A DNA stretch of 24,000 nucleotides from Kribbella steppae (GTDB lineage: Bacteria; Actinomycetota; Actinomycetes; Propionibacteriales; Kribbellaceae): NCBI RefSeq assembly GCF_004342025.1, contig NZ_SLWN01000001.1, forward strand, positions 810,788 to 834,787, given 5' to 3'. Both the position numbers and the translations under genes were made by a program. The first letter of the stretch is position 1. Every line of letters begins with the position of its first letter. Shown in pieces: positions 7,922 to 17,568 of the stretch. Below the pieces are notes generated by a model. It was not told the DNA's origin, ran no database searches, and saw nothing but the letters and a program-made list of their open reading frames with translations.

Positions 7922-9286
7922 TCACTCAGTTACAGCGGTCGACGCCGAAAGAAGCAGCTCGCTGAGCAAGAGCTGGTCAGCGCTGCCCAGAACCAGGTCG
8001 GCCGCGGCGACGTCGGCCTCGCCCACATACGGATTCGGGATCGCGACCGCGAACATCCCCGCCGCCTGTGCCGCTGCTACTCCGTGCGCGGTGTCTTCGA
8101 CGGCGATCGCTTCCTCACCAGGTACGTCGAGACGCCGCAGAGCCAGCTCGTAGATGGCCGGATCGGGCTTGTGCGTCGCGACCTCGTCACCGGTCACGAT
8201 CAGATCGAACAGCTCGATCGCATCCACGCGCTCCAAGTGACCACGAACCCACGGCCGCGGCGAACTGCTCGCAATAGCCACCGCCAGCCCCAGCTCCCGC
8301 GCCGCCGAGATCCACTCCCGGATGCCCGGCCGGAAGTCCAGCTCCTCGTGCATGCGGTCGCGGTGAGCGGTCCGTCGCGCATGACTCGCCGCCCGGTCGA
8401 AGGCGGTACCGACCGCCGCGCCGAGCAGCTCGTAGCGCGTCTCGGAGATGTCGCCGCCGTGACCGGGCCAGAAGTCGTCGAGATCGAGCTCGAGCCCGTG
8501 GTGTGCCCACTCCGAACGCCAGCTCTCCACCATCGTCGTCTCGGTGTCCATCAACAACCCGTCGAAGTCGAACACCACCGCCCGCACCTCGACCGGCACC
8601 AACCGCACCGCCAGCCGATGGACCTCGGCCGCCGTCAGCCCGCATTCCGCCAGATACGCCCGCACGCCGCCGTAGCGCCGGTCCACGTGATCGAGCGAGT
8701 CGAGGATCGTCTCCGGCAACGTCCGCGAGATGATCTCGGCGGCCTGCCGCTCGTCCGCAGGCAGCTCGGCGAGCCGCGCGAGGACGCCGAGCCGCTCCTC
8801 GCTCACGGCATAGTCGTCCGCGATCACCTTGCGCGGTACGCCGACGAGGTCGAGCCACAACGCGATCAGCAGTCCGGTCCGGTCCTTGCCGGCCTTGCAG
8901 TGCACGACGACCGGCGCGTCATCCGGCGCCGCGATCAGCGCACGGAACGCCTTGGCGATCTGGCTCTTGTTCCGGTCGAGACTGCCGCGATAGATGTCGG
9001 CGAGCAGAGGCTCGGCAGCCGCATCGCGGTGCACTTCGGCAGCCGGGTCGATCCACGGGATCCGCTGGTACGACGCCGAGTCGTCGAGCAGATGGAGTTG
9101 CTTGATCTCCCAGTCGGAACGCAGGTCGAGCACCAACCCGGCGCCGGCGGCAGCGAACGCGGCCCGTCCTTCGTCGTCCAGGTTGTCCGGTGAGTCCGTC
9201 CGGAACACGCTCCCACTGCATGTCGGTACGCCGTACCGCGTCGGAAGTCCGCCGATGTCACGCGCATTCAGGCATCCGCTCCACAC
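7922..9286 (-). CDS. Fusion of a tyrosine-phosphatase-like domain (CX5R) and a HAD-IA hydrolase domain
   Basis: N-terminal half: NARDIGG...VHCKAGKDRTG (CX5R P-loop), resembling the Y_phosphatase3 type. C-terminal half: VVFDFDGLLMDTE (DxD motif I), IASSS (motif II) and EDTAHGVAAAQAAGM (motif IV region). GTG start lies 4 nt after the upstream stop. Confidence 0.8.
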   Translation of the reverse strand: MWSGCLNARDIGGLPTRYGVPTCSGSVFRTDSPDNLDDEGRAAFAAAGAGLVLDLRSDWEIKQLHLLDDSASYQRIPWIDPAAEVHRDAAAEPLLADIYRGSLDRNKSQIAKAFRALIAAPDDAPVVVHCKAGKDRTGLLIALWLDLVGVPRKVIADDYAVSEERLGVLARLAELPADERQAAEIISRTLPETILDSLDHVDRRYGGVRAYLAECGLTAAEVHRLAVRLVPVEVRAVVFDFDGLLMDTETTMVESWRSEWAHHGLELDLDDFWPGHGGDISETRYELLGAAVGTAFDRAASHARRTAHRDRMHEELDFRPGIREWISAARELGLAVAIASSSPRPWVRGHLERVDAIELFDLIVTGDEVATHKPDPAIYELALRRLDVPGEEAIAVEDTAHGVAAAQAAGMFAVAIPNPYVGEADVAAADLVLGSADQLLLSELLLSASTAVTE

Positions 9287-9290
9287 GCGG

Positions 9291-10616
9291 TCAGCTTAGA
9301 ACAACACCGCCGAGCGATTCGAAATCTTTCCACGTACCGTCGAACGCCTTGTGGTGCATCGCCGAGTCGATCCCGACCGCGAAGACATCGAGCCGGCCGG
9401 GACCCCAGGCCACCACCGAGCCGGCCGGTCTGGGCCGGGTCACAGCAGCGGCCACCAGTTCGAGCCAGCCGGCCAGCGCGGCCACGTTCATCCGCAGGAT
9501 CTCGGCCGCCAGCGCCCAGTCGAGGAAGTTCAGCGTGTCGGTCGCCGTGTGGATGTGCCCGTTCGCGCTGTCCGCTCCTTCGATCGTCAGCACGGCCGGG
9601 ATCCCAGCGTTGATGAACGGCACGTGGTCACTCGCGAACGGATTCAGCGACGTCTCGACCTTCAGCGCGGTGTACGTCGCGGCCGCCGTCGCCAGGTCGG
9701 CCATTTGAGTCGACGACAGGTTCGCACCTTCCAGCAGCACGGTCGGCACGGCCGTGTTCTTGCTCGCGATCATGTCCATGTTCAGTACGGCGCGGATCCG
9801 CGCACGCTCGGCCGGCGGCAGCGCGGCGACGTACTGCTTGCTGCCGAACAGCCCCTGCTCCTCCCCACCGAACAAGATCAGCCGTACGTCGTGCCGCCAC
9901 GACCTGGTCGACAACAGCCGACCCAACTCGAGCACACCGGCCGAACCGCTCCCGTTGTCGTCCGCGCCGGGAGCGTTGGCGGCGGGACCACCGGCTTGGT
10001 TGACCGAGTCCAGGTGCGCGGTGATCAGCACGACTCCGCCGCCACCGGTCCCCGGCCGATCCCCGATCAGGTTCTGCGACTGACCGCCGCCGACCGTGAC
10101 CGACGTCCGCGTCACTCCGTAGCCGAGGGCAACCATCCGGGCGGCGGCGAAGTCCATCGCGGTAGTGAACGACGGACTGAGCGAGTGCCGCGTCGGCAGA
10201 CTCGCGAACCAGGTCAGATCGGCCTGGTACGACGTCGGCGACAGTTCACCGACGAGGTCCGCGACGGCCGGATCCACTCTGGCCGCGGCCACTGACGGTA
10301 CGTCGACGACCGTCGTACCGGCGCGCAACGGCTCGACCCGCCAGCAGTTGTTCGACCGGCGGCGGGGTTTGTCGGTGGACGAGATCACCAGATGGCGGCC
10401 GTGGTCGACCAGCGGGGTGACGTCGGGGAAGTCGTCCTGGAAGCTCCGGCCCACCTGCGTGACCAGCAGCAGGCCGGGTGCGGTCCGGGAGGCCCGGCCG
10501 AGGCGTTGGTCGGCCGGGACCCAGAGGAGGGTCTTGTCGCCGAACCGCGCCGAATGCGCGCCCTCGGCGGCCTCCACAGTCGGTACAACGAGGTAGCGCA
10601 CAGGTGTCGTGCTCAT
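9291..10616 (-). CDS. M28-family aminopeptidase with one C-terminal PLL/DUF346-like propeller blade
   Basis: M28 metal-ligand motifs: [44 protein letters not shown]. The last 42 aa, [38 protein letters not shown], match the blade repeat of the gene two positions upstream. I chose ATG 10616 (MSTTPVRY...); the 67-codon extension in the ORF track is R/P/S-rich and overlaps a better ORF in another frame. Confidence 0.8.
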
Positions 10617-10917: not shown

Positions 10918-13247
10918 CTCAGCACCGCCTGTTCGATCGATGCGGGCGACTCCGGCACGGTCACCTTGAAGTCGCTGATGATGCCGCCGAGCGGTTCGTA
11001 GCCGGTGACCGACGGTCCCCAGGCGGAGCCGTCCCACCACTTGTGGTACAGCTGCTTGTCGATGCCGGTGACGAACACGTCGAGCCGGTTCGCGCCCCAC
11101 GAGACGACCCGCGGCTCGTCGGTGCAGATGCCGCCCAGGTACTCCCAGTCGGTGAGCGACGGTCCCCAGGCGGACCCGTCCCACCACTTGTGGTACAGCG
11201 CGGAATCCGTGCCGAGCACGAACACGTCGAGCCGGTTCTCGTCCCACGAGACGACGGTCGGGGCCGTCGTACAGATGCCGCCCAGGTACTCCCAGCCCGA
11301 CCAGGCCGAGCCGTCCCACCACTTGTGGTACAGCGCGGAATCCGTGCCGACGACGAACATGTCGAGCCGGTTCTCGCCCCAGGCAACGACCCGCGGCGGC
11401 GAAGCGCAGACGCCACCGAGGTACTCGTACCCGTCTACCGACGGCCCCCAGCTCGAGCCGTTCCACCACTTGTGGTAGACCGCGTTGTCGGTGCCGACGA
11501 CGAACACGTCCAGCCGGTCGCTGCCCCAGGCAACGACTTCGGGCCGGCTCATACAGATGCCGCCGAGGTACTCGTACCCGTCGACCGACGGTCCCCAGCT
11601 CGAGCCGTTCCACCACTTGTGGTACAGCGCGCGGTCCGTGCCGAGGACGAACGCGTCCAGCCGGTCCGGGCCCCAGGTGGCCAGGCGTGGCGGACTCATG
11701 CAGACCCCGCCCAGGTACTCGTACCCGGTGACCGACGGTCCCCAGTTCGAGCCGTCCCACCACTTGTGGTAGACCGCGTGATCGGTGCCGAGGACGAACG
11801 CGTCCAGCCGGCCCGGCGCCCAGGACGCGACTTCAGGAGCACTCATACAGACACCACCCATGTATTCGTAGCCGCCGACGGACGGTCCCCAGGACGATCC
11901 GTCCCACCACTTGTGATACATCGCCAGATCGGTGCCGACCACGAACGCGTCCAGCCGGTTCGCACCCCACGCCACCACGGATCCGGCGGGTTCCGGCGTA
12001 CCACCGGCGCCGCCGCCCGTGATCAGGCCGGGGCGGACGGTGTCCAGACAGGCCTCCATCCGGGCCACCTGGTCGTCGGTGAACATCACCATGCCGCGGT
12101 CGTCGGTGTAGTCCATGTAGTCGTAGAACAGGTCACCGTTCGGACCGTTGCTGCAGGTCACGTGCGGGAACGTCGGTACGCCGAAGTTCGGGCCGGCCTG
12201 GTTCGGGGTGTCGGCGACCTCGTCGCTGCCGCTGCAGCCGGTGCCGTCGTCGCCCCAGATGTGGAACAGGTTCAGGTAGTGCCCGATCTCGTGGGTCGTG
12301 GTCCGGCCCAGGTCGAACGGCGCGGCCGCCGTACCGTTGGTGCCGAACCCGCTGTGCAGGATGACCACGCCGTCGGTTTCGGCCGGGCCACCTGGGAACT
12401 GCGCGTACCCGAGCAGGCCGCCGCTGAGCTGGCAGACCCAGATGTTCAGGTACTTGTCGGCCGGCCACGGGTCGTGGCCGCCGGTCGCCGATGCCTTCAC
12501 CTTGTCGTCCGAGCCGAACCCGTTGACGGTCGTCTGGGTCCGGGTGACACCGGTCGTCGGGTTGCCGTCCGGGTCCTCGGTGGCCAGATAGAACTCGATC
12601 CGCGCGTCTGCGATCAGCCCGTTGAACGCGGCCGGCACGATCCCGATGTCGGCGTTGGTCGCCCGGAAGTCGTGGTTCAGTACGTCGACCTGGCTGTCGA
12701 TCTGGGCCTGTGAGATGTTCTGTGCCGCGGTCTTCCAGACCACGTGCACCACACAGGGGATCCGCGCTATACCGGCAAAACGTTGCTGGCGGGCCACGTA
12801 CAGCGTCGTCGCGTTCTCGATGGCCGACCGCGCGATGGCGTACTCGGGTGAGGTGGAGAGCAGTCTGCGGTGTACGTCCATCACGCCGCACTGCCGTCTG
12901 GTCGGAGTCTCGATTCGCCCGTCCGCGCCGCTCATACCCGCACCACCGGCTCCGGCTCCGCCACCCATTCCGGCACCGCCCGCTTGGCCGCCGCCGCTCA
13001 TCCCGGCACCGCCACCGGCACCGCCGCCACTCATCCCGCTGCCTCCGCCGGCACCTCCGCCACTCATGCCGCCGGGCATGTTGCCGGATCCACCTGCTCC
13101 CTGCGCACCGCTGCCCGAACCCATCGACATCCGCTCGCCGGGCATCCCGTTGACGGCCGGCGTTCCGTTCGCGGACCGCGCCTCGCCCGGCATCCGGTGG
13201 TCGTCGTCGCGGTGCTTGTCCGCTCTCCCGTTGGCCTTCCTCGGCAT
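10914..13247 (-). CDS. M43-family (pappalysin/ulilysin-like) zinc metalloprotease with a Gly/Met-rich N-terminal region and a C-terminal seven-blade PLL/DUF346-like lectin propeller
   Basis: Catalytic core [14 protein letters not shown]...[14 protein letters not shown] (HEXXHXXGXXH)...ADTPNQ...YDYMDYT. It is followed by seven repeats of [39 protein letters not shown]. ATG 13247 is preceded by GGAAGGGGGAGAG. No signal peptide is recognisable. Confidence 0.85.
10917..11978 (-). repeat. Seven in-frame tandem coding repeats (six blade units of 147 bp, counting only the conserved core of the longer final unit, and one of 135 bp) encoding propeller blades
   Basis: The motif cccaccacttgtggta recurs at about 11033, 11179, 11314 and 11754 (and as tccaccacttgtggta at 11461 and 11608, cccaccacttgtgata at 11902), giving spacings of 147, 135, 147, 147, 147 and 147. 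A 40-nt stretch is identical at 11176-11215 and 11311-11350. Confidence 0.9.
12921..13127 (-). repeat. Low-complexity Gly/Met/Ser/Ala-rich coding tract (imperfect 27-bp periodicity)
   Basis: It encodes [70 protein letters not shown], with [10 protein letters not shown]-like units repeated. GGT and GGA codons are more frequent here than elsewhere in the window. Confidence 0.8.
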
Positions 13248-13486
13248 CTCTCCCCCTTCCAGCGGGGGCGCACAAGCAGGTCGGGACCAACCGAGATCCC
13301 GGACCGACAAGGATTCCCCCAGCCCACCCCTCGATCGAAGACGGTCCTACCCGCCTTCCCCCACCGAACAGCCAGCCCCCAAGTCACTGCTCTCTGTTCA
13401 CCTTCCACCCATCACCGCACGCGCACAACCCTTCGCACCAAGACAGTGAACTTTCCCCCGAACCCCCTGCCCCCGTTGAAGAATTG

Positions 13487-13500: not shown

Positions 13501-13521
13501 AGGGATTCCGTTGCGCCGAGG

Positions 13522-15720
13522 TCAGCGCAGGGCGATGAACCGGATGCCGTTGACGGTCAGAGATGTCTTGACGTTCGCAGCGTTGCCTTTGACCACAGCG
13601 ATGACGTCGGGCTCCGTGAACAGTGGGAGCAGATCGGACGGGATGCCGGGCTTGGGCTCATCGGAACCGATGTCGATCAGCCGCTCCGGGCACCTGGCGA
13701 GGTACGCCCCGAGCTTGGGCCAGCGAAGGGTGAGGATGGTCCACAGAGCCGTCTGCTGCTCGTGCGTCTCGTCGTTGTCCAGGTTCACACCTTGCAGAGT
13801 CTCGATGCCACGCGCAATGCCGTAGGCGTTGACGAGTCGCTTCATCATGCGGGGGTTCGGATCATCACCCAGCAGCGCGCGGAACGGCTCCAACGTGTGA
13901 GTGTCGGCCACCCGCGCCCGTTCGCTGACCATCTCGACTGCCACGAGCTCGCGCCGGGCCTGCACCTCGGCCACGGAGCTTCCTTGGTTCCTGGCGACTT
14001 CTCGCCGTACGTCGTCCGGCGGGAGACTACCGAGTTCGCTGGCGGCCGCCGTCCGCGCCGCCTCGAGGTCCGCCTCTCCCGGCACGGACGGCGAGCGCAG
14101 AATGCGCCCCCAGAAGGCGTCGATCCGGTCGCGCACCTGCGGCAGACCGGTCGAGATCTGGAACGTCTTCTCCAGGAACAGGTAACCGACCGGCCGGCCG
14201 GGCTCTCCGGCCAGGCTGCCGAAGGTCGCGTACTCGCTCGCGTAACTGTCGGCCAGCCAGTCGCGGTCTGCGGCGACCACGTAGGTCACCGGGATCTCGC
14301 GGAAGAGTGTCTGGATACCTTCCAGGAGTTCCACCACGTACGGGCTCTTGCACCGGTCCAGGTCGTCGATCATCACCACGATGTCGTGGTGGATCCACTG
14401 GGTCAGGTCGGCGAGGTGTTCCTGGACCACACGCATCGGATCGCTGGTGTTGGCGATGAATCGCCTGGCCCCTCTGGCCGATGTGCTGAAGACCCAGCGT
14501 CCCATCGCGTGCAGGAGTCCCCAGACGGTGAGCGCCGGTGTGATGATCGCGGCCGCGGTGACGACGAACCCCTTGAACGTGGCCGGCGAGAACAGCTCCT
14601 GGTTCCCCGCCCCGCCGAACCAGCCGGCCCGCCACGCGAGGAAGACGAGGCCGGCGACCAGCACCAGCGCCAGGTACCCCGGCCAGCCGCCCTTGGACCG
14701 CCAGATCCACTCGCGGATCCGGACGGTCAGCGCCCGGCGCCGGTCGAACGTGTCGAGCTCACGGACCGCGCCGGAGTACAGCGCCCGCATCAGCCACCAC
14801 CACGGCGGCTCGATGCGCTGATGGCGCCAGGCGTTGAAGTCGACCACCACCGACCGCTTCGCATCCGCGGCCGGATCGTCCTTGCGCAGCTCGGCGGCAA
14901 GGAAGTTGAGCACGGACGTCTTCCCGGCACCCCACGGCGCATGCAGGTGAAGGATGAACGCACCCCCACGCCTGGCCTGCGGATCGGGCGCGTGCTTGCT
15001 GTTGCGGGTCTCCTCCGTGCGGGCATCCCGGATCCGCCGCGCCAACACCTTCGCAAACCCCTGCCGCCCCAACTCGTCCACCACCGCCGGCCCATCTGTA
15101 TGCGTCGGCACAGTCTCGACCGGCCAGGACGGCGCAGGAGCCTTGTCTTCTTCGCCGGCGCTCTCTGAGACGTCCTCGAGCGACCACGTGAGGTACTGGT
15201 TGCTCAACTGGTCGTACTGCGCTTGATCCCGCACGTAGATCTTGACCGGCAGGGATGGGGCTGAATAGACGGCAGGCGGTGTGTCCTGTCGGGTGACGCC
15301 GGCGACGATGGCGTTGAAGGATTCCTCGGCCTCCAAAACGCCCGCGCCGCTACCGAGCAGCGGGAGGCCAAGTGTTCCGCCACGGTCCGACGCGAGCCTG
15401 GCGGCCCGGGCGGCGGCCGACCGTACCCACTCCGCCTTCGACCCGACGCCGTCGACGACCACGGCCGCCAGCAGAATGGTCGTCGGCCCCGGCCGTCGCT
15501 TGACCTTCCCGTCGGCTTCCCAGGCGCGCACCACCTGTCCCGGTTCCAGTCGACGGGGCATGTCGAGCGTGTAGTCCACCAGTCGCGTGCTGAAATCCGG
15601 CGCGATGCTGCCGGACGTGCTGCACGGAATGACGACGACGTCGTCGCGACCGAGAAACAGGTCGCCGAGCACCACTTCGACCGGACCAGCGTGCGCCGTT
15701 GCCGATTCCTGCGCGGCCAT
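13522..15720 (-). CDS. Macro-like N-terminal domain fused to a KAP-family P-loop NTPase with an inserted transmembrane hairpin
   Basis: KAP hallmarks: DELGRQGFAKVLARRI, Walker A HAPWGAGKTSVLNF and two hydrophobic helices inside the NTPase domain (GYLALVLVAGLVFLAWRAGWF and FVVTAAAIITPALTVWGLLHAM). Also Walker B IVVMIDDLDRC, FLEKTFQISTGLP and the C-terminal NPRMMKRLVNAYGI. Residues about 14-165 (VEVVLGDLFLGRDDVVVIPCSTSGSI...TLGLPLLGSGAGVL) resemble TARG1/DarG-type macrodomains. RBS GGGGGAG lies 4 nt upstream of the ATG. Confidence 0.85.
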   Translation of the reverse strand: MAAQESATAHAGPVEVVLGDLFLGRDDVVVIPCSTSGSIAPDFSTRLVDYTLDMPRRLEPGQVVRAWEADGKVKRRPGPTTILLAAVVVDGVGSKAEWVRSAAARAARLASDRGGTLGLPLLGSGAGVLEAEESFNAIVAGVTRQDTPPAVYSAPSLPVKIYVRDQAQYDQLSNQYLTWSLEDVSESAGEEDKAPAPSWPVETVPTHTDGPAVVDELGRQGFAKVLARRIRDARTEETRNSKHAPDPQARRGGAFILHLHAPWGAGKTSVLNFLAAELRKDDPAADAKRSVVVDFNAWRHQRIEPPWWWLMRALYSGAVRELDTFDRRRALTVRIREWIWRSKGGWPGYLALVLVAGLVFLAWRAGWFGGAGNQELFSPATFKGFVVTAAAIITPALTVWGLLHAMGRWVFSTSARGARRFIANTSDPMRVVQEHLADLTQWIHHDIVVMIDDLDRCKSPYVVELLEGIQTLFREIPVTYVVAADRDWLADSYASEYATFGSLAGEPGRPVGYLFLEKTFQISTGLPQVRDRIDAFWGRILRSPSVPGEADLEAARTAAASELGSLPPDDVRREVARNQGSSVAEVQARRELVAVEMVSERARVADTHTLEPFRALLGDDPNPRMMKRLVNAYGIARGIETLQGVNLDNDETHEQQTALWTILTLRWPKLGAYLARCPERLIDIGSDEPKPGIPSDLLPLFTEPDVIAVVKGNAANVKTSLTVNGIRFIALR

Positions 15721-15790
15721 GGGCTCCCCCTCGTCACACGATCCGCATCCTCCCTCGCAGGTTAGTGCGAACCAGCGACTACGGACAGTG

Positions 15791-16534
15791 TCAACTGAGG
15801 TGCGCCAGCAGGAGGGGGTTGATCACCTCGGGGTGGGAGTAGGTGACGAGGTGGGCGGCGTTCTCGATGATCTCGAGGTGGGCGCCGGGGATGGCGGAGG
15901 CGAGCGGGATGACGGTTTCGGGTGGGATGGAGGTGTCTTGTTCGGTGGTGATGAGGAGGACCGGGGCGGTGATGTCGCCGAGTTTGTCGCGCAGGTCCGT
16001 CGTACCGAGGGCCTCGCAGCAGGCGGCGTAGCCCTCGTCGGGGGTGTTGAGGAGTTGCTGGCGGAGCGGGTCGACGTCGGGGAAGTCGGGGAGGAACCAG
16101 CGCTCCAGGGTCGCGTCGGTGATGGCTTGAGTGCCTTCGGCGCGGACGGTGGCGGCTCGGTCGGTCCACATCTGGGCGTCGTCGGACGGGTTGGACGGCG
16201 GACAGAGCAGCGCGAAGCGGTGGAAGCGGTCGGGTGCGTTCTGAGCCAGCCAGAGGCCGACCGCGCCCCCGAGCGAGATGCCGACGTACGACGCCTGGTC
16301 GACGCCGAGGGTGTCGAGGAGTTCGAGTACGTCGCCGCCGAGGTCGTCGATCGTGTACGGCCCGGGCGGCGCCTCGGACTCGCCGTGGCCGCGGTGATCG
16401 AACGCGATCACCCGGAACCGCTCTGCCAGGACGCTGACCTGCGGCGCCCACATCGCGTGCGTCGTCCCGAGCGAGGACCCGAGCAGAACCACGGGCGCGT
16501 CGTCGGGACCGGTCTCCGCATAGTTGAGTCGCAT
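15791..16534 (-). CDS. Alpha/beta hydrolase, 3-oxoadipate enol-lactonase-like
   Basis: LLGSSLGTTHAMWAPQ, FDHRGHGES, nucleophile elbow GISLGG, and a C-terminal ENAAHLV (catalytic His region). 247 aa, typical of the PcaD-like family. Confidence 0.8.
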   Translation of the reverse strand: MRLNYAETGPDDAPVVLLGSSLGTTHAMWAPQVSVLAERFRVIAFDHRGHGESEAPPGPYTIDDLGGDVLELLDTLGVDQASYVGISLGGAVGLWLAQNAPDRFHRFALLCPPSNPSDDAQMWTDRAATVRAEGTQAITDATLERWFLPDFPDVDPLRQQLLNTPDEGYAACCEALGTTDLRDKLGDITAPVLLITTEQDTSIPPETVIPLASAIPGAHLEIIENAAHLVTYSHPEVINPLLLAHLS

Positions 16535-16569: not shown

Positions 16570-17568
16570 ATGACCAAGGGTGTGCCGGGCCTGGAATCTG
16601 TCCGCGAACTGGCAGCGGTGGTCCGCGGCGGGTTCGTCGAGAGTCGCCACTTCGGGATCGCGGTCGCGGTCGATCCGGGCGGTACGCCGATCGTCACGGT
16701 CGGGGACGTGGACGCGGTGGTGTTGCCCCGGTCCACGACGAAGCCGCTGCAGGCGGTCGGGTGCATCGCGGCCGGCGCCTCGCTGTCGGGTGAGGAGACC
16801 GCGATCACGGCGGGCAGCCACACCGGCGAGGACCGGCATGTCGCCGTGGTGGACCGGATGTTGGCGGCCGCCGGGCTCGATCGAGGCGACCTGATGTGTC
16901 CGCCGGACCTGCCCCAGGACGAGGAGACCCGGAACCGGTTGATCGCCACCGGCATCGGTCCGTCCCGGGTACTGATGAACTGTTCGGGTAAGCACGCCGC
17001 GATGCTCGCGGCAACAGTTGCTACAGGCAACGACACGTCCGATTACCTCGATCCGGCCGGCCCGGTGCAGAAAGCGGTCACCGCGGAGATCGAGCGGTTG
17101 ACCGGGGCAACAACTGGGATCGTCACCGTGGACGGTTGCGGCGCTCCTCTGGTCGGCGTGCCGCTGCGCGGGCTGGCAGTCAGCTTCGGCCGGCTCGCCA
17201 CAGCTGCCGAGGGTACGGCGGAACACCAGGTCGCGGAGGCGATGCGGCAGTTCCCGGAGCACGTCGGCGGTCGCGGGCACCAGAACAGCCTGGTGATGCA
17301 GGCGCTGCCAGGCGTCATCGCCAAGGGCGGTGCGGAAGGCGTGATCGCGATGGCCGCGCCGGACGGTCACGCGGTGGCGGTCAAGGTGATCGACGGCAAT
17401 CAGCGGGCCACGACGGCGCTCGGCCTGATGCTGCTGAGCATGTGCGGCGTGGACGTCACCGCCGCCGCGGAACTGCTCGAGGTCCCGGTCCTTGGTGGCG
17501 GCCAACCCGTCGGCGCGATCGAACTCCAGCTTCAGCCGGCCCGCCGCGGCCGCTCGTCCTCGCGGTAG
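16570..17568 (+). CDS. Asparaginase_II-family protein (Rhizobium etli-type L-asparaginase family)
   Basis: LAAVVRGGFVESRHFG, LPRSTTKPLQA, AGSHTGEDRHV, MNCSGKHAAML, VDGCGAP and KGGAEGV are the conserved blocks I associate with this family. Confidence 0.8.
   Translation: MTKGVPGLESVRELAAVVRGGFVESRHFGIAVAVDPGGTPIVTVGDVDAVVLPRSTTKPLQAVGCIAAGASLSGEETAITAGSHTGEDRHVAVVDRMLAAAGLDRGDLMCPPDLPQDEETRNRLIATGIGPSRVLMNCSGKHAAMLAATVATGNDTSDYLDPAGPVQKAVTAEIERLTGATTGIVTVDGCGAPLVGVPLRGLAVSFGRLATAAEGTAEHQVAEAMRQFPEHVGGRGHQNSLVMQALPGVIAKGGAEGVIAMAAPDGHAVAVKVIDGNQRATTALGLMLLSMCGVDVTAAAELLEVPVLGGGQPVGAIELQLQPARRGRSSSR

Follow-up and report, generated by a model that had tools for sequence, protein, structure and literature searches.

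A divergent macro domain joined to a membrane KAP NTPase: a candidate one-gene conflict module in Kribbella steppae

A single gene of Kribbella steppae, at 13522–15720 on the minus strand of a 24-kb stretch of contig NZ_SLWN01000001.1 (24,000 nucleotides; referred to below as the window), encodes a 732-amino-acid (aa) protein that joins an N-terminal macro domain to a membrane-inserted KAP P-loop NTPase. Judged from its sequence and predicted structure, this macro-KAP gene is a credible candidate immune gene of partly new design: stand-alone KAP defence proteins and macro-domain Thoeris sensors are known already, and the new elements are the N-terminal macro domain on a KAP NTPase and the macro clade to which it belongs. 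The reading preferred here, as a serious but still tentative possibility, is that of a dispensable one-gene conflict module in which the macro domain would sense a ligand and control the membrane KAP NTPase; by analogy with relatives, the role of such a module would probably be anti-phage. The original prediction for this locus had held that the exact architecture was not known as characterised, and the literature searched indeed yielded no paper describing a macro-KAP or macro-TIR fusion.

Assignment of the N-terminal ~180 aa to the macro fold is solid at the level of profiles and models. The divergent macro domain (residues ~14–177; 15190–15681, on the minus strand like all features of the gene) was recognised from searches of the PDB with family profiles, from an AlphaFold (AF2) model and from Foldseek, which agree with the macro-like N-terminus read earlier from motifs; profile and structure prediction both return a macro rather than a non-macro fold. 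Residues 1–211 gave no match in Pfam, PADLOC or NCBIfam, and a phmmer search of the PDB with the single protein was equally empty, macro domains being reached by family profiles only. A profile of 29 orthologous N-domains found the macro domain of TTHA0132 at E 6e-8, with all remaining matches also macro domains, and a broader clade profile reached TTHA0132 (7.7e-13), alphavirus nsP3 (2.8e-8), macroH2A1.1 (~1e-4) and also PARP9/14. The AlphaFold model of residues 1–181 (pLDDT 86.6, pTM 0.83) was compared by Foldseek with the PDB and with the viral library BFVD, where the best 50 matches in each were all macro domains or macro-derived designs at a TM-score of ~0.7. The proposed TARG1/DarG-type label did not hold. 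With the broader clade profile, the DarG macro domains 5m3i and 5m31 gave E values of 2.5e-4 and 1.6e-3, far behind TTHA0132, they occupied ranks 46 and 48 by Foldseek, and TARG1 was absent among the matches listed. By both sequence and model, the domain is nearer to the TTHA0132, alphavirus nsP3 and macroH2A types.

The motifs quoted in the original prediction are all where it had placed them, those of the N-domain being GDLF (residues 19–22), VVVIPCSTSGSI (28–39), PGQVVRAW (60–67) and TLGLPLLGSGAGVL (116–129). The adenine-contact Asp is Asp20 of GDLF, which is present in at least 90% of the 29 Kribbella-type sequences and replaced in some members of the wider macro clade. Loop 2, LPLLGSGAG (120–127), is invariant across the family, and its pattern PLLGxGxG shows the strongest conservation in the clade. 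In loop 1, IPCSTSGSIAPD, the catalytic Asn of the NAAN sequence aligns with Ser34, which belongs to the clade motif P-C-S, and the Gly-rich stretch (GGG/GDG) aligns with SGSIAPD in HMMER alignments to TTHA0132, macroH2A1.1 and alphavirus nsP3; across the clade, neither Asn nor Gly is maintained at these loop-1 positions. The signature of MacroD-type ADP-ribosylhydrolases, consisting of the catalytic Asn and a Gly-rich loop 1, is accordingly not present. These three reference macro domains share with the target the fold (TM-score ~0.7) and the order of motifs (GD..., loop 1 at beta3, loop 2 PLLGTG), at 15–20% identity; the target differs in having Ser for the NAAN Asn, in the loss of GGG/GDG from loop 1 and in an extra Gly in loop 2 (GxGAGG). 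Because the catalytic Asn and Gly-rich loop are replaced while Asp20 and loop 2 are kept, we infer from these alignments that the domain more likely binds an ADP-ribose-like nucleotide than hydrolyses it by the MacroD mechanism.

The remainder of the protein (residues ~213–732; 13525–15084) is a KAP-family P-loop NTPase module, to which Pfam KAP_NTPase (PF07693) matches over residues 254–635 with an E value of 3.3e-24 and 86.1 bits against a cut-off of 20. It contains the Walker A motif APWGAGKTS (residues 261–269; 14914–14940), the Walker B motif VVMIDDLDRC (448–457; 14350–14379) and the C-terminal KAP motif NPRMMKRLVN (622–631; 13828–13857). Residues G264, G266, K267, T268 and S269 of Walker A and the DDLDRC of Walker B are invariant among 24 homologues, and N622, P623, R624, K627, L629, V630 and N631 of the tail are invariant in the homologue alignment. 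Transmembrane segments inserted between Walker A and Walker B, by which KAP proteins are recognised, are predicted here as a two-helix membrane hairpin in the NTPase core (residues ~344–406; 14503–14691). Its hydrophobic segments lie at ~344–368 and ~384–405, with Kyte–Doolittle peaks at 343–353 and 381–387, and the full-length AF2 model (pLDDT 74, pTM 0.43) places helices 327–364 and 379–406 as a hairpin between core strands 291–296 and 447–452. Pfam match, motifs and modelled hairpin all sustain the earlier description of a KAP NTPase with two hydrophobic helices inserted in its core. The two modules are connected by a predicted flexible linker (residues ~178–212; 15085–15189), with pLDDT below 50 at residues 177–212 of the full-length model; in orthologues it is variable in length and rich in S/T/P/A, the N-terminal regions measuring 184–260 aa.

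By sequence, the protein is a member of the KAP superfamily that stands outside the PDC-S20, PifA and QatA families. These three gave weak, partial PADLOC matches of 43–55 bits around Walker A and B, and the NCBIfam QatA model scored 52 bits against a cut-off of 600. PDC-S20, PifA of the F plasmid and QatA are KAP-superfamily NTPases linked to phage exclusion, and none has a macro domain. The best solved structural match of the KAP module is RdrA, a ring-forming defence ATPase (PDB 8hr8, 8fnw) that works with the RdrB deaminase; the match to 8hr8 is distant (Foldseek E 2.7e-6, ~540 columns, TM-score ~0.25), and RdrA is not known to contain a membrane hairpin or a macro domain. Several established systems were considered and rejected as a home for the gene: PifA, since its PADLOC match is weak and partial; QatABCD, for the QatA score just given and the absence of QatB, QatC and QatD genes from the window; RADAR, as the RdrA fold match is distant and a Pfam scan of the window found no RdrB deaminase; and DarTG, as the similarity to DarG is not the best and the Pfam scan of 19 window genes found no DarT (DUF4433).

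A mechanism that would fit these features can be outlined as follows. In the cytoplasm, the divergent macro domain would serve as the receptor of a ligand that contains ADP-ribose, MacroD-type hydrolysis having probably been lost; candidate ligands are an NAD+-derived nucleotide from a TIR or another enzyme that consumes NAD, or a product of infection that has been ADP-ribosylated. Through the flexible linker, it would be tethered to the KAP P-loop NTPase, itself held at the membrane by the two-helix hairpin. Once bound, the ligand might shift the KAP module to another oligomeric or nucleotide state (rings are formed by KAP relatives, RdrA among them), and the module would then execute the response at the membrane. 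Ligand, direction of signalling, output and anti-phage role are inferred, the sensor-to-effector direction being taken from the domain architectures of relatives. Support for this sensor model comes from the partner domains of the macro clade, from the precedents of ThsA and the KAP fusions, and from the accessory, conflict-like behaviour of the gene.

Among these precedents, EF_KAP and three metagenomic KAP fusions have been described as stand-alone anti-phage proteins that need Walker B (PLoS Biol 2026, PMC13552941). For EF_KAP, both the fused region and Walker B are required, and the authors propose that the NTPase regulates the fused module (PMC13552941). In architecture, the K. steppae protein resembles this type, being the product of a single gene that combines a variable region with a KAP NTPase whose NTPase domain contains a transmembrane helix. 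The variable region of EF_KAP-type proteins is C-terminal and of unknown fold, whereas that of the target is an N-terminal macro domain. EF_KAP is reported not to act by abortive infection (PMC13552941), and the abortive-infection-like label attached to the K. steppae gene in the original prediction is only a guess. The second precedent is ThsA of type II Thoeris, which combines transmembrane helices with a macro domain that binds ADP-ribose-type ligands and oligomerises (PMC11204291; bioRxiv 10.1101/2024.01.03.573942). As in the target, a macro domain is joined to membrane-spanning helices, and the ThsA macro domain binds rather than hydrolyses its ligand; oligomerisation at the membrane on ligand binding is thereby offered as a plausible logic. 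The layouts differ: ThsA starts with transmembrane helices, continues with the macro domain, has no NTPase and is encoded next to a ThsB TIR gene, whereas in the target the macro domain comes first, the KAP NTPase that follows carries its hairpin internally, and a TIR gene is not found nearby. Membership in type II Thoeris was rejected, there being no ThsA_Macro match and no ThsB TIR in the window or the orthologous loci.

Partner domains of the wider macro clade were collected in an exhaustive profile search of 1.84 billion representatives (50% identity clustering), which returned 795 proteins at E ≤ 1e-3 and 277 at E ≤ 1e-10; architectures were taken from Pfam scans of the top matches. A C-terminal TIR_2/SEFIR domain follows the macro-like domain in 41 of 52 mid-size members, and a KAP NTPase accompanies it in 21 of 27 long members, including Actinoplanes proteins of 1098–1177 aa. 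Other arrangements comprise EAD11-macro-KAP, Pkinase-GGDEF-macro and an N-terminal TIR of the CAP12/Pycsar type with a C-terminal macro-like domain, and the clade is also combined with EAD7, NACHT/nSTAND, CHAT and Mrr_cat. Known models are reached weakly by clade members: Pfam Macro (PF01661) by 19 of 31, at a best E of 2e-5, ThsA_Macro by 11 of 31 and PADLOC DarG by 8 of 31, the PADLOC ThsA macro models being weak as well. No current family model, Pfam included, covers this clade. The arrangement of a CAP12-type TIR with a C-terminal macro-like domain mirrors that of TIR-STING and PycTIR, in which the non-TIR partner is a nucleotide sensor. The published role of EAD adaptors is to recruit effectors (PMC8195603), and in EAD11-macro-KAP the adaptor would presumably recruit a separate effector in trans. 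The CAP12-TIR-macro and EAD11-macro-KAP layouts are the reason for favouring the macro-like domain as the ligand sensor. A broader generalisation, possible if on the doubtful side, would make the macro clade a widespread receptor module for NAD+-derived nucleotides, coupled to outputs of at least three kinds (TIR NADases, membrane KAP NTPases and EAD assemblies), with the Kribbella protein as an 'orphan receptor' KAP.

The same architectures can be read with the wiring reversed. A KAP or STAND-like NTPase as infection sensor has been proposed for PifA and for STAND-like NTPases, and the membrane KAP module might accordingly be the sensor or switch and the N-terminal macro domain the output enzyme, which might strip the ADP-ribose marks that ADP-ribosyltransferases of phages leave behind or break down a metabolite or signal derived from NAD. 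In STAND-like conflict NTPases, an effector is the usual occupant of the N-terminal slot (Kaur et al. 2020/2021; PMC7159879, PMC8195603), and KAP ATPases displace STAND NTPases in conflict systems (PMC8195603). The closest relatives of the KAP module, 37–64% identical to it, carry TIR_2, TPR or unknown domains in that slot and come from Gaiellaceae, Solirubrobacterales, Sphingomonadales and other metagenome-assembled genomes, TIR or TPR being seen there in close relatives at 50–60% identity; TIR is a typical effector, and the NACHT/nSTAND, CHAT, Mrr_cat and EAD7 partners of the clade belong to the effector-slot repertoire of NTP-dependent conflict systems (PMC7159879). The requirement of EF_KAP for both its fused region and Walker B, with the NTPase read as regulator, fits this wiring too (PMC13552941), as does the fast evolution of the macro domain described below, which is what might be expected of a part facing phage counter-measures. 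Against it, other residues stand in place of the canonical catalytic Asn and Gly-rich loop, EAD11-macro-KAP already bears an adaptor for a separate effector, the macro domain takes the sensor position in CAP12-type TIR-macro proteins, and a de-ADP-ribosylase would have no obvious need for NTPase-driven oligomerisation. On balance the reversed wiring is rather unlikely.

The uncharacterised TIR-KAP and TPR-KAP paralogues have the same hairpin and motifs as the Kribbella KAP module and differ from it by an additional ~100-aa helical domain that separates the N-terminal module from the KAP core and that the Kribbella macro-KAP lacks. Seen in P0033, P0036, P0044, P0049 and P0060 at residues ~150–290, this domain shows the pattern HPEYG ... 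W(L/I)xxVRxL ... ELHGR..(I/L)xGLAxLD; one related protein weakly matches Pfam Clp_N, and where the relatives carry the domain the Kribbella protein has its low-complexity linker.

Rates of evolution differ between the two modules. In seven pairwise comparisons (loci L001, L003, L004, L006, L008, L010 and L013), the ratio of nonsynonymous to synonymous divergence (dN/dS) was 0.27–0.59 for the macro domain and 0.14–0.31 for the KAP module, the macro dN being 1.7–4 times the KAP dN, and the linker approached a dN/dS of ~1 in distant comparisons. Identity to the K. amoyensis protein is 35% in the macro domain and 70% in the KAP module, with neighbouring genes at 52–95%, and the macro-KAP gene as a whole diverges faster than most of its neighbours. 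These values indicate evolution that is relaxed or diversifying but, taken overall, under purifying selection, rather than decay; the macro domain was also considered for positive selection, which was rejected, as its dN/dS stays below 0.6. Synonymous divergence is also higher in the macro than in the KAP part in 7 of 7 comparisons (for example, dS 0.28 vs 0.16, 0.43 vs 0.22 and 0.88 vs 0.50), which might stem from a mosaic or recombinant origin of the N-domain or from codon constraints that differ between the two parts.

The gene is an accessory one at a fixed site. The same hydrolase stands directly upstream of it in a close relative (86% identical) and in K. amoyensis (58%), and examination of loci around the hydrolase orthologue showed it to be missing from four Kribbella genomes (L078–L081): in K. 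swartbergensis and Kribbella sp. CA-247076 the hydrolase directly adjoins the M43 peptidase gene, and in K. antiqua and K. aluminosa a radical-SAM gene. By blastn against K. swartbergensis (L078), homology stops 7 bp past the hydrolase stop codon and restarts 22 bp past that of macro-KAP, so that the flanks enclose 2283 bp in the window and 8 bp in K. swartbergensis. The present/absent segment (13501–15783) thus consists of the gene with 63 bp upstream and 21 bp downstream, and no repeats or target-site duplications were seen at the indel junctions. This clean 2.28-kb single-gene indel matches the independent single-gene unit that had been postulated, and the presence/absence polymorphism among close relatives sets the gene apart from universally conserved core synteny. 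Since carriers and non-carriers interleave in a ranking by hydrolase identity and three genomes hold broken copies, repeated loss of an ancestral accessory gene would be the simplest history. The scan of genomes by full-length alignment was not exhaustive, having missed K. amoyensis and K. ginsengisoli, and its counts are not used as frequencies. Horizontal arrival by plasmid or phage found no support in the phage and plasmid searches or in the content of guanine and cytosine (GC), which in the gene is similar to that of the surrounding DNA.

The split or frameshifted copies lie at 9953–12257 in L015, 10001–12271 in L016 and 9956–11835 in L021. Two open reading frames (ORFs) of Kribbella sp. 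NPDC023855 encode the macro part (199 aa) and, separately, the KAP part (541 aa), in Kribbella sp. CA-294648 there is a frameshift near the C-terminus, and in a record titled 'Streptomyces sp. SID13031', which may be a mislabelled Kribbella, the gene is in three fragments. Together with absence from the four other genomes, such copies are what would be seen if the gene were a decaying remnant without current function in K. steppae. With an intact copy in this species, invariant Walker and KAP motifs and the low dN/dS of both modules in all seven comparisons, that explanation is scarcely credible.

The history of the locus also bears on a non-immune function, namely that of an accessory membrane regulator linking NAD/ADP-ribose status to an envelope or transport process in Kribbella. 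Such a role would suit the fixed site, beside a 3-oxoadipate enol-lactonase-like hydrolase and near an mreCD-PBP2-RodA cluster, which is kept as far as K. amoyensis, as well as the GC content, the seemingly vertical descent, with identity that tracks the neighbours, and the failure to find mobile-element or defence genes nearby. It accords poorly with repeated clean loss and pseudogenisation in several species, with the exchange of the N-terminal module for TIR or TPR in close relatives, with clade partners that are overwhelmingly conflict-type domains and with the demonstrated anti-phage activity of KAP fusion proteins (PMC13552941), and is considered improbable.

Several observations weigh against the preferred reading of macro-KAP as a ligand-sensing conflict module. 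Its function is a prediction drawn from sequences and models, and the pocket was judged from sequence alignments only. The target itself reaches no Macro, ThsA_Macro or DarG model, with no match to Pfam Macro or PADLOC DarG and none at E ≤ 1 to PF20016 (ThsA_Macro) or the PADLOC ThsA models. The N-terminal position is usually an effector slot in related NTPases and is filled by TIR in the closest KAP relatives, which favours the macro domain as output, and fast evolution is unusual for the receptor of an invariant small molecule. No TIR, ADP-ribosyltransferase, other known defence gene, integrase or transposase was found in the 24-kb window or the orthologous loci, and hence no candidate producer of the signal there. 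The window and eight related loci hold metabolic, peptidase and cell-shape genes only, so that the defence-island association raised with the original prediction was not seen in the window or the orthologous loci, and two non-Kribbella relatives likewise sit among metabolic genes. Finally, the phage collection contained no homologue, and plasmids gave only KAP-only matches of 23–28%.

Suspicion that KAP NTPases act in phage exclusion dates back two decades, to PifA; only recently were KAP proteins established as stand-alone defence proteins, for which, to our knowledge, no trigger or mechanism is known. If the 'orphan receptor' generalisation is right, macro-KAP would give this family its first member with a defined small-molecule trigger, either a signal made in trans or ADP-ribosylation caused by phage. 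As the variable module is here a recognisable ligand-binding fold, ADP-ribose-type ligands can be tested on the domain and on the ATPase activity. The macro clade, with ~800 representatives and with TIR domains and KAP NTPases as its chief partners, is uncatalogued and would extend the network of TIR and NAD-derived signals beyond Thoeris operons. Even for an ordinary gene, the domain assignments and the population-level indel would be useful annotation for Kribbella.

The single 732-aa ORF of the original prediction is present, on the minus strand, which had been left unsaid; it is a complete gene with an ATG start and its stop codon at 13522–13524, read from the ORF list and translation. Its codon-position GC (GC1/GC2/GC3 of 0.68/0.50/0.85 over the ORF), the 100% identity of its product to the NCBI entry 'KAP-like P-loop domain-containing protein [Kribbella steppae]' and the purifying selection on intact orthologues together establish it as a real coding frame. 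The strong ribosome-binding site claimed for it corresponds to a Shine–Dalgarno-like GAGGGGGAG (15724–15732, minus strand), read from the sequence 4 nt upstream of the ATG and also kept upstream of the orthologues in loci L004, L001 and L006. Upstream, a 70-bp gap separates the gene from the alpha/beta hydrolase gene (15791–16534, minus strand), whose orthologues are called 3-oxoadipate enol-lactonase in several source records. Downstream lies an M43 peptidase gene with DUF346 repeats, the earliest start of which is at 13310, leaving at least 211 bp; of the two gaps given earlier, the 70 bp stands, whereas the 275 bp downstream depends on the choice of start codon, being 211 bp to the longest possible start. 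The gene may be co-transcribed with the hydrolase or expressed from its own promoter. A scan for consensus promoters and terminators found none, a result that is uninformative for a high-GC actinomycete.

In the window, 19 likely genes were called and scanned with Pfam. These metabolic, peptidase and cell-shape genes include prephenate dehydratase, LacI, GNAT, radical SAM, a PTP-HAD fusion, M28 and M43 peptidases, the hydrolase, asparaginase II, DUF2000, AsnC, a sigma factor, CMD, RodA and PBP2. The asparaginase II gene (16570–17568, plus strand), between DUF2000 and the hydrolase, is variably present: it is found in the window and in L001, is not at that position in L078–L081 and occupies a different place in the K. 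amoyensis locus. The stretch around asparaginase II and macro-KAP is a mild hotspot of gene-content change.

Two related loci show further peculiarities. On the metagenome contig L002 (1–4900 and 12250–20770), an identical 730-aa orthologue has the same immediate upstream genes; further out lie a Mrr_cat/NA-iREase1 plus Zn-ribbon protein, a DEAD helicase and an ABC-F protein, and the downstream neighbours are fragmentary. The differences of this contig probably stem from an assembly or frameshift problem rather than from biology. In Actinoplanes sp. NPDC051861 (L082), the gene for a 1177-aa macro-KAP is followed after 46 bp by a same-strand ORF of 504 aa (11581–13095), whose product has a faint trypsin-like match and could be a partner. 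Elsewhere in the window, the ORF at 7922–9286 (minus strand) encodes a Y_phosphatase3 tyrosine-phosphatase domain and a HAD hydrolase domain in one protein, and its K. antiqua counterpart, of 237 aa, consists of the phosphatase part alone.

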